A stretch of 2,827 bases of DNA from Enterobacteria phage CUS-3, in sequence record FN394992.1; one strand, given 5' to 3'. Shown piece by piece: positions 539-1,762 of the stretch. Numbering within the stretch: position 1 is the stretch's first letter; each line of letters starts with the position of its first letter. The position numbers and the translations under genes were made by a program. The notes beneath the pieces are model-generated. The model made no database searches. It saw only the letters and a list, made by a program, of their open reading frames with translations, and had not been told where the DNA came from.

Positions 539-1762
539 TCTGAGCCATGTGTAAAATATTATGATGGCATTCTGTATCTGACGACCAGGGGGACATTAAG
601 TACTCAACCCGGTAGTTCATTGCACAGAAGCTCTGATTTAGGTACATCATGGAATTCTCTTCGCTTCCCAAATAATGTTCATCACTCAAACCTTCCTTTT
701 GCCAAAGTTGGCGATGAGCTGATTATTTTTGGCAGTGAGCGCGCATTTGGTGAGTGGGAAGGAGGAGAACCTGATAACCGTTATGCAGGAAACTATCCAA
801 GAACATTTATGACCAGAGTTAACGTCAATGAGTGGAGTCTGGATAATGTAGAGTGGGTTAATGTTACTGATCAGATTTATCAGGGCGGAATAGTTAACTC
901 TGCGGTTGGTGTTGGTTCAGTTTGTATCAAAGACAACTGGCTGTACTACATTTTCGGTGGGGAAGACTTTCTAAACCCATGGAGCATAGGGGATAACAAC
1001 AGAAAATATCCTTATGTTCACGATGGTCACNNNNNNNNNNNNNNNNNNNNNNNNNNNNNNNNNNNNNNNNNNNNNNNNNNNNNNNNNNNNNNNNNNNNNN
1101 NNNNNNNNNNNNNNNNNNNNNNNNNNNNNNNNNNNNNNNNNNNNNNNNNNNNNNNNNNNNNNNNNNNNNNNNNNNNNNNNNNNNNNNNNNNNNNNNNNNN
1201 NNNNNNNNNNNNNNNNNNNNNNNNNNNNNNNNNNNNNNNNNNNNNNNNNNNNNNNNNNNNNNNNNNNNNNNNNNNNNNNNNNNNNNNNNNNNNNNNNNNN
1301 NNNNNNNNNNNNNNNNNNNNNAGCGGCGGTGAAACAACGTCTTCAGCAGATGGTGCAATGATAACGTTGCATGGTTCCGGAAGCAGTACTCCACGTCGCG
1401 CGGTATATAACGCACTCGAACATCTTTTTGAGAACGGAGATGTTAAACCTTATCTTGATAATGTAAATGCTCTTGGTGGTCCGGGAAACAGGTTCTCGAC
1501 AGTTTATCTTGGCTCCAATCCTGTGGTTACCAGTGACGGAACATTAAAGACAGAGCCGGTCTCTCCTGACGAAGCATTGCTGGATGCCTGGGGTGACGTC
1601 AGGTATATCGCTTATAAATGGCTGAACGCTGTCGCTATAAAGGGGGAAGAAGGGGCGAGGATACATCATGGTGTAATCGCGCAGCAACTTCGTGATGTTC
1701 TTATTTCTCACGGACTCATGGAAGAAGAAAGCACAACATGCCGCTATGCGTTTCTTTGCTAT
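539..1762 (+). CDS. Tailspike/tail fibre protein, C-terminal portion (no start or stop in view; interrupted by N-run 1031-1321): sialidase-like Asp-box propeller segment plus C-terminal intramolecular chaperone (peptidase S74) domain; probable endo-N-acetylneuraminidase (endosialidase)
   Basis: Hand translation of frame 2 gives 164 stop-free codons for 539-1030 (SEPCVKYYDGILYLTTRGTLSTQPGSSLHRSSDLGTSWNSLRFPNN...GSVCIKDNWLYYIFGGEDFLNPWSIGDNNRKYPYVHDGH) and 147 stop-free codons for 1322-1762 (SGGETTSSADGAMITLHGSGSS...NRFSTVYLGSNPVVTSDGTLKTEPVSPDEALLDAWGDVRYIAYKWLNAVAIKGEEGARIHHGVIAQQLRDVLISHGLMEEE...). The 291-nt N-run between them is a multiple of 3, so both pieces share one frame. The ORF track missed this frame because it contains no ATG outside the Ns. 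SSDLGTSW fits the sialidase Asp-box S-x-D-x-G-x-[T/S]-W. SDGTLK ... HHGVIAQQL fits the autocleavage site and conserved core of the tail-fibre/endosialidase C-terminal chaperone domain. Confidence 0.8.
629..652 (+). other. Asp-box (BNR) motif S-S-D-L-G-T-S-W within the tailspike
   Basis: Codons agc tct gat tta ggt aca tca tgg at 629-652 in frame 2. The motif is characteristic of sialidase/neuraminidase beta-propellers, including phage endosialidases. Confidence 0.6.
1031..1321. other. N-run of 291 nt (97 codons) inside the tailspike reading frame
   Basis: Seen directly. The length is a multiple of 3, and the same stop-free frame is open on both sides. Confidence 0.9.
1532..1762 (+). other. 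C-terminal intramolecular chaperone / autoproteolytic domain (peptidase S74 type) of the tailspike, with the predicted self-cleavage motif S-D-G-T-L-K at 1532-1549; the domain continues into the gap
   Basis: TSDGTLKTEPVSPDEALLDAWGDVRYIAYKWLN...HHGVIAQQLRDVL follows the family pattern: Ser-Asp...Lys at the cleavage site, then a conserved (I/H)GxIAQ(E/Q) core. In this family the Ser is the cleavage site, and the domain is released after trimer folding. Confidence 0.7.

Follow-up and report, generated by a model that had tools for sequence, protein, structure and literature searches.

Organization of the Sequence Record

The window, i.e., the whole stretch of 2,827 nt analysed here (AC No. FN394992.1), carries part of the gene for the small terminase subunit, siaK1 in two pieces, and neuO. 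These are placed on four readable stretches (1-438, 539-1030, 1322-1762, and 2180-2827) that are split by runs of 100, 291, and 417 N. The following features were recognized, with amino acid (aa) numbers given in CUS-3 numbering:

1-438, plus strand: partial terminase small-subunit gene of CUS-3, mapping to positions 22268-22705 of CP000711
439-538: arbitrary spacer of 100 N; the genes on either side lie about 17 kb from each other in CP000711
539-1030, plus strand: siaK1 fragment 1, aa 487-650, C-terminal part of the six-bladed catalytic beta-propeller (Pfam PF12217, identity to CP000711)
542-544, plus strand: Glu488, counterpart of the catalytic Glu581 of EndoNF (alignment to 1v0e/3gvk)
587-589, plus strand: Arg503, counterpart of EndoNF Arg596 (alignment to 1v0e/3gvk)
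629-652, plus strand: Asp-box SSDLGTSW, aa 517-524, with the pattern S-x-D-x-G-x-[T/S]-W, aligned with SRDIGQTW of EndoNF
740-742, plus strand: Arg554, counterpart of EndoNF Arg647, aligned with a position that is A in 3gvj and R in other EndoNF chains
1031-1321, plus strand: N run of true length, aa 651-747, where the propeller ends and the stalk begins (common CP000711 offset; gap also in sibling records)
1322-1531, plus strand: first part of siaK1 fragment 2, aa 748-817, C-terminal end of the stalk (tail-spike) domain up to the last residue of the mature protein (Pfam PF12219)
1532-1549, plus strand: SDGTLK, containing Ser818 at 1532-1534 and Lys823 at 1547-1549, the Ser-Lys dyad by which the chaperone domain would cleave itself off (Pfam, 3gw6 alignment)
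1532-1762, plus strand: second part of siaK1 fragment 2, aa 818-894, N-terminal 77 of the 164 residues of the C-terminal intramolecular chaperone domain (Pfam PF13884, 3gw6)
1763-2026, plus strand: first part of an N run, unreadable, rest of the chaperone domain (87 codons, aa 895-981) and the stop codon (projection from CP000711 with offset 3462)
2027-2179, plus strand: second part of the same N run, unreadable, siaK1-neuO intergenic region of 153 nt (projection from CP000711)
2180-2827, plus strand: neuO, K1 polysialic acid O-acetyltransferase, a left-handed beta-helix acyltransferase (Pfam Hexapep, annotation of sibling records, comparison with CP000711)

The window is a composite (concatenated) GenBank typing record of prophage CUS-3, without natural contiguity. 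When 539-1030 was searched by megablast in the phage collection, the series FN394986-FN395002 was recovered, in which every record is exactly 2827 bp long and has the same layout. The titles read 'Enterobacteria phage CUS-3 partial proviral terminase gene, siaK1 gene and neuO gene, genotype GT_n', and the isolates are E. coli serovar K1, which agrees with the K1-type E. coli host that the earlier note had considered probable. CDS features of the sibling records occupy the same four ranges (1-438, 539-1030, 1322-1762, and 2180-2827), and the N runs lie at identical coordinates in the siblings as deposited; therefore, the N runs are part of the deposit and not masking added to a natural locus. 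The earlier note had spoken of masked sequence at 1031-1321 and 1763-2179. Letters are indeed replaced by N there, but they were deposited in this form. The most likely origin of these records is the population study on CUS-3 and neuO by Mordhorst et al. 2009.

The 18 CUS-3 typing records and CP000711 have 99-100% DNA identity to the window. None of the 18 sibling records was 100% identical in all four stretches according to the four fragment searches. Four siblings compared base by base differed in 3, 9, 12, and 14 bases, FN394993.1 being the nearest with 3.

On CP000711, the complete genome of CUS-3, siaK1 is located at 2526-5471 and the terminase small-subunit gene at 22268-22705. As these genes are about 17 kb apart, the run at 439-538 is an arbitrary spacer, and the adjacency of terminase and tailspike genes is an artefact of concatenation. 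A genuine deletion in a decayed prophage was considered for this junction and rejected, because the siblings share the 100-N spacer by design and the genes are distant in CP000711. The concatenated nature of the record was missed in the earlier note; the terminase gene does not truly lie beside the tailspike gene. In this concatenated record, neither adjacency across the 100-N spacer nor the neuO start codon as written should be taken as a natural feature. The terminase fragment (1-438, 146 aa) had no match in a Pfam search at E ≤ 0.01. Public annotation of its DNA is inconsistent, several phage genomes listing it as 'HNH homing endonuclease' or as 'hypothetical protein'.

Extent and Reading Frame of siaK1

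The stretches 539-1030 and 1322-1762 are almost certainly two pieces of siaK1, the endosialidase tailspike gene of CUS-3. Each is translated as a single open stretch, of 164 aa (aa 487-650 of the 981-aa protein) and 147 aa (aa 748-894), respectively. Both map to CP000711 with a common offset of 3462, and because this offset is the same on both sides of the gap, the 291 N represent exactly 97 codons and the fragments belong to one gene. The run of 417 N (1763-2179) also has the true genomic length, as the neuO start codon of CP000711 is found at the same offset.

Visible siaK1 codons number 311 out of 981, and the first 486 codons are outside the window. That only about a third of the gene can be read leaves room for siaK1 of this isolate being a decayed prophage copy, its visible fragments being relics and an active tailspike no longer being made. 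Damaged copies do exist: an IS3-family transposase disrupts the tailspike region of a chicken isolate (NZ_CP178648.1), and one other genome retains just 128 of the 492 bases of fragment 1. Against this stand both fragments of the window, which are open throughout with nothing visible that hints at decay, and all checked catalytic and cleavage residues, which are retained. Moreover, genomes with a 100% identical allele have an intact tailspike gene of 2949 nt, and in none of the 185 matching genomes does the best hit of fragment 1 fall below 99% identity. Decay of this copy is thus given only a small chance, and the reading as pieces of a presumably intact siaK1 is preferred. The annotated features under the match in NZ_CP178648.1 are an endosialidase catalytic beta-propeller protein, an IS3 family transposase, an acyltransferase, a phage tailspike protein, and an AL1L pseudoknot.

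Fragment 1 is 100% identical at the DNA level to siaK1 of CUS-3 (ABQ88383.1 in CP000711; CAJ29292.1), which is the same gene. Fragment 2 has four mismatches in 441 nt (99.1% identity) at positions 1379, 1500, 1574, and 1750 relative to the RS218 reference. Three of these change the protein (R767G, I807T, and T832A) and one is silent, and the cleavage dyad is untouched. In the phage collection, the exact allele of fragment 2 was otherwise found only in FN395000.1. It is conceivable, with a very small chance, that R767G, I807T, and T832A in the stalk/chaperone region alter how the stalk site binds O-acetylated as opposed to plain polysialic acid, or how efficiently the protein matures; CUS-3 genotypes would then differ in handling a capsule modified by their own neuO.

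neuO and Genomic Context

From siaK1 into neuO, the window is colinear with CP000711: the genomic spacing is exact, and the offset of 3462 still holds at the start codon of neuO. In a complete genome, an allele 100% identical over 539-2827 is arranged in the order ant, tailspike gene (2949 nt, intact), neuO, intS, and tRNA-Arg. Fragment 1 was present with at least 99% identity in 185 of 5426 complete E. coli genomes and was always chromosomal. Many E. coli genomes have two to four places matching fragment 1.

The neuO gene of the record starts with ATG TCG... at 2180-2185, while its genomic form is ATG TT(AAGACTC)n G... with 19 copies of the heptanucleotide in CP000711. The array was excised from neuO of the record, giving an in-frame gene with zero repeats (MSFSVDD...), and the written start is thus not natural. 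The neuO product O-acetylates polysialic acid, the same polymer at which the tailspike is directed, and neuO is phase-variable. In 19 complete E. coli genomes, the span matching 539-2827 deviated in length from that of the window by exact multiples of 7, corresponding to 5 to 44 repeat copies, and the number of repeats was divisible by 3 (phase-ON) in only six of them. In PA45B, which has 20 copies, the annotated 'acyltransferase' is a neuO remnant of 336 nt.

The colinearity bears also on whether the fragments could come from another K1-specific prophage that shares the endosialidase module with CUS-3. In SF-468 (NZ_CP012625.1, 5366-8485), a 99.8% identical fragment 1 lies inside a gene for a 1039-aa protein, followed by holin, GH19 endolysin, and DUF2514 genes near yfgI and with no adjoining neuO, and fragment 2 is 99.8% identical to phages vB_EcoP_ZX5 and vB_EcoP-720R6. 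The SF-468 copy is in a different type of prophage; therefore, the endosialidase module circulates between prophage types. In the window, however, siaK1 and neuO are exactly colinear with CP000711, and the layout is that of 18 records deposited as CUS-3, so an origin other than CUS-3 is highly improbable. The function would be the same either way.

Domains and Structural Relatives of the siaK1 Product

The product of fragment 1 matched Pfam family PF12217 (End_beta_propel) with E value 1.6e-104 and 350 bits against a cut-off of 24, over profile positions 192-355 of 367. The product of fragment 2 matched PF12219 (End_tail_spike, E 7.3e-33, profile positions 91-160 of 160) and, directly after it, PF13884 (Peptidase_S74, E 8.1e-12, 45.7 bits against a cut-off of 22, residues 71-132). 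The profile search proposed in the earlier note thus placed fragment 1 in the endosialidase propeller, and fragment 2 in the endosialidase stalk followed by Peptidase_S74. What had been described there as a beta-propeller-like segment and an S74-type chaperone domain are accordingly members of these families.

In the PDB sequence search, fragment 1 was most similar to the endosialidases of phi92 (4hiz, E 1.8e-83) and K1F (1v0e/3gvk, E 3.3e-80), and fragment 2 matched 3gw6, the K1F stalk-plus-chaperone structure, with E 4.3e-62. The part of the product coded by 1322-1531 aligns with the C-terminal 69 residues of mature EndoNF chains.

Alternatively, fragment 1 might belong to an ordinary exo-sialidase or to some unrelated glycosidase or lyase that happens to bear an Asp-box, as an Asp-box by itself is not specific to endosialidases; the earlier note had given the same caution. 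Nevertheless, the only Pfam matches at E ≤ 0.01 were to phage endosialidase families and Peptidase_S74, and all five PDB matches to fragment 1 are phage endosialidases. The CUS-3 reference protein, furthermore, can be aligned with EndoNF over the entire length, and the N-termini of the P22 and Sf6 tailspikes match its first 118-127 residues. The reading as a different enzyme, which is hardly conceivable, was refuted by the Pfam and PDB matches together with the full-length EndoNF alignment. The product is assigned to the phage endosialidases (endo-N-acetylneuraminidases), which form CAZy family GH58.

The full-length protein of CP000711 consists, according to Pfam, of Head_binding (1-113), End_N_terminal, End_beta_propel with inserted End_beta_barrel, End_tail_spike, and Peptidase_S74. 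It covers the whole PF12217 profile and the complete PF12219 domain. Its Head_binding domain (PF09008, E 5.2e-66) and End_beta_barrel (PF12195, aa 324-406) correspond to regions outside the window. Modular endosialidase architecture, as seen in the CUS-3 protein, has been described (PMC5380687).

Asp-Box, Active-Site Counterparts, and Predicted Cleavage Site

In-frame translation recovered the Asp-box SSDLGTSW and the cleavage motif SDGTLK exactly at 629-652 and 1532-1549, where they had been read from the letters. SSDLGTSW is inside the End_beta_propel match, and SDGTLK represents the first six residues of the Peptidase_S74 match. Because both motifs lie inside strong Pfam domain matches, they are not chance matches. 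A second Asp-box, SGDDGKTW, is found at aa 262 of the full-length CUS-3 reference protein, outside the window.

In EndoNF, Glu581, Arg596, and Arg647 are key catalytic residues at which almost no substitution is tolerated (PMC12632334), and their counterparts in the window are Glu488, Arg503, and Arg554. The chain-to-residue offset of 240 used for EndoNF was derived from the Ala of 3gvj at chain position 407, which is Arg in other chains, and also from the mature EndoNF crystal chains, which end at the Thr before the Ser of the aligned SDGTLK. The RS218 reference protein retains His350 and Arg549 of EndoNF as its His250 and Arg456, both encoded upstream of the window. For these two residues, as for the head-binding domain, the beta-barrel, and the C-terminal 87 residues of the protein, the RS218 reference and not FN394992.1 was the source.

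The predicted cleavage point is expected directly before Ser818. In the alignment, an Ala of 3gw6 stands opposite this residue, and the crystal chains of mature EndoNF stop one residue earlier. The 3gw6 protein is presumably a mutant with the cleavage-site Ser replaced by Ala. A Ser-Lys cleavage dyad at positions i and i+5 is conserved in the family of Peptidase_S74-type domains (PMC3742443).

Proposed Function of the Tailspike

Gene identity, domain membership, and conservation of the key residues were read directly from the sequences, and with great confidence siaK1 represents the endosialidase tailspike of CUS-3, a P22-like temperate phage (Lederbergvirus) integrated in E. coli K1. The earlier note had predicted a K1 depolymerase of the endosialidase type, and the Pfam endosialidase families, the PDB endosialidases, and the DNA identity of 99-100% to siaK1 all bear this out. 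CUS-3 is one of the four phages that it had named for comparison, and it is CUS-3 that gives this DNA match. The identity of the enzyme was therefore right; what the word 'predicted' missed is that the enzyme is the already characterized one of CUS-3. The Asp-box and the S74 cleavage motif alone sufficed to identify a K1 capsule depolymerase and its host correctly.

The siaK1 tailspike and the CUS-3 prophage are already known and well described, and the record adds nothing new to their biology. The siaK1 annotation of CP000711 reads 'endo-alpha-sialidase activity [Evidence IDA] [PMID 16689790]', and CUS-3 is listed among characterized endo-N-acetylneuraminidases/endosialidases in a review (PMC5380687).

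By analogy with the K1F enzyme and published work on CUS-3, trimerization, self-cleavage, and hydrolysis of polysialic acid would be attributed to the siaK1 product. In the full 981-aa protein, a P22-type head-binding domain at the N-terminus is followed by a six-bladed beta-propeller, into which a beta-barrel is inserted, then by a triple-beta-helix stalk, and finally by an intramolecular chaperone domain. This C-terminal domain may aid folding and assembly of three chains into a trimer. After folding, the dyad Ser818/Lys823 would cut it off, and what remains would be a stable mature trimer comprising aa 1-817. Its head-binding domain would anchor the trimer on the P22-like tail, and the propeller probably cuts internal alpha-2,8 linkages of the K1 capsule, by which the phage would gain access to the cell surface.

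Comparison with Known Endosialidases

The siaK1 gene of CUS-3 in CP000711 has the same neighbour, neuO, at the same spacing, and the copy in FN394992.1 is an allelic variant only. The reference for the CUS-3 endosialidase is Stummeyer et al. 2006 (PMID 16689790).

EndoNF of K1F (1v0e, 3gvk, 3gvl, and 3gvj; chaperone 3gw6) has the propeller, stalk, and C-terminal chaperone domains in common with the CUS-3 protein, with aa identity of 68.9% in fragment 1 and 67.1% in fragment 2. The CUS-3 fragments also share with EndoNF the catalytic Glu/Arg/Arg, the Asp-box, and the Ser-Lys dyad. The two proteins differ in the N-terminal virion adaptor, which is a P22-type head-binding domain in CUS-3 but of T7-fibre type in K1F (PMC5380687), and in an insertion of seven residues, FVDGSTP, near aa 423 of CUS-3, before the start of the window.

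The phi92 endosialidase (4hiz) is the best-scoring solved relative of fragment 1, and the comparison of the two revealed a 2-residue insertion in the propeller. In contrast, its stalk is far more distant (E 1.8e-7 with fragment 2), and the crystallized chain stops at the stalk, before the chaperone region. The first 77 of about 164 residues of the Peptidase_S74 chaperone domain are readable in FN394992.1, and the Pfam match to this domain begins at the Ser of SDGTLK. The spacing of five between Ser and Lys in this motif is the same as in S578/K583 of MYRF (PMC3742443).
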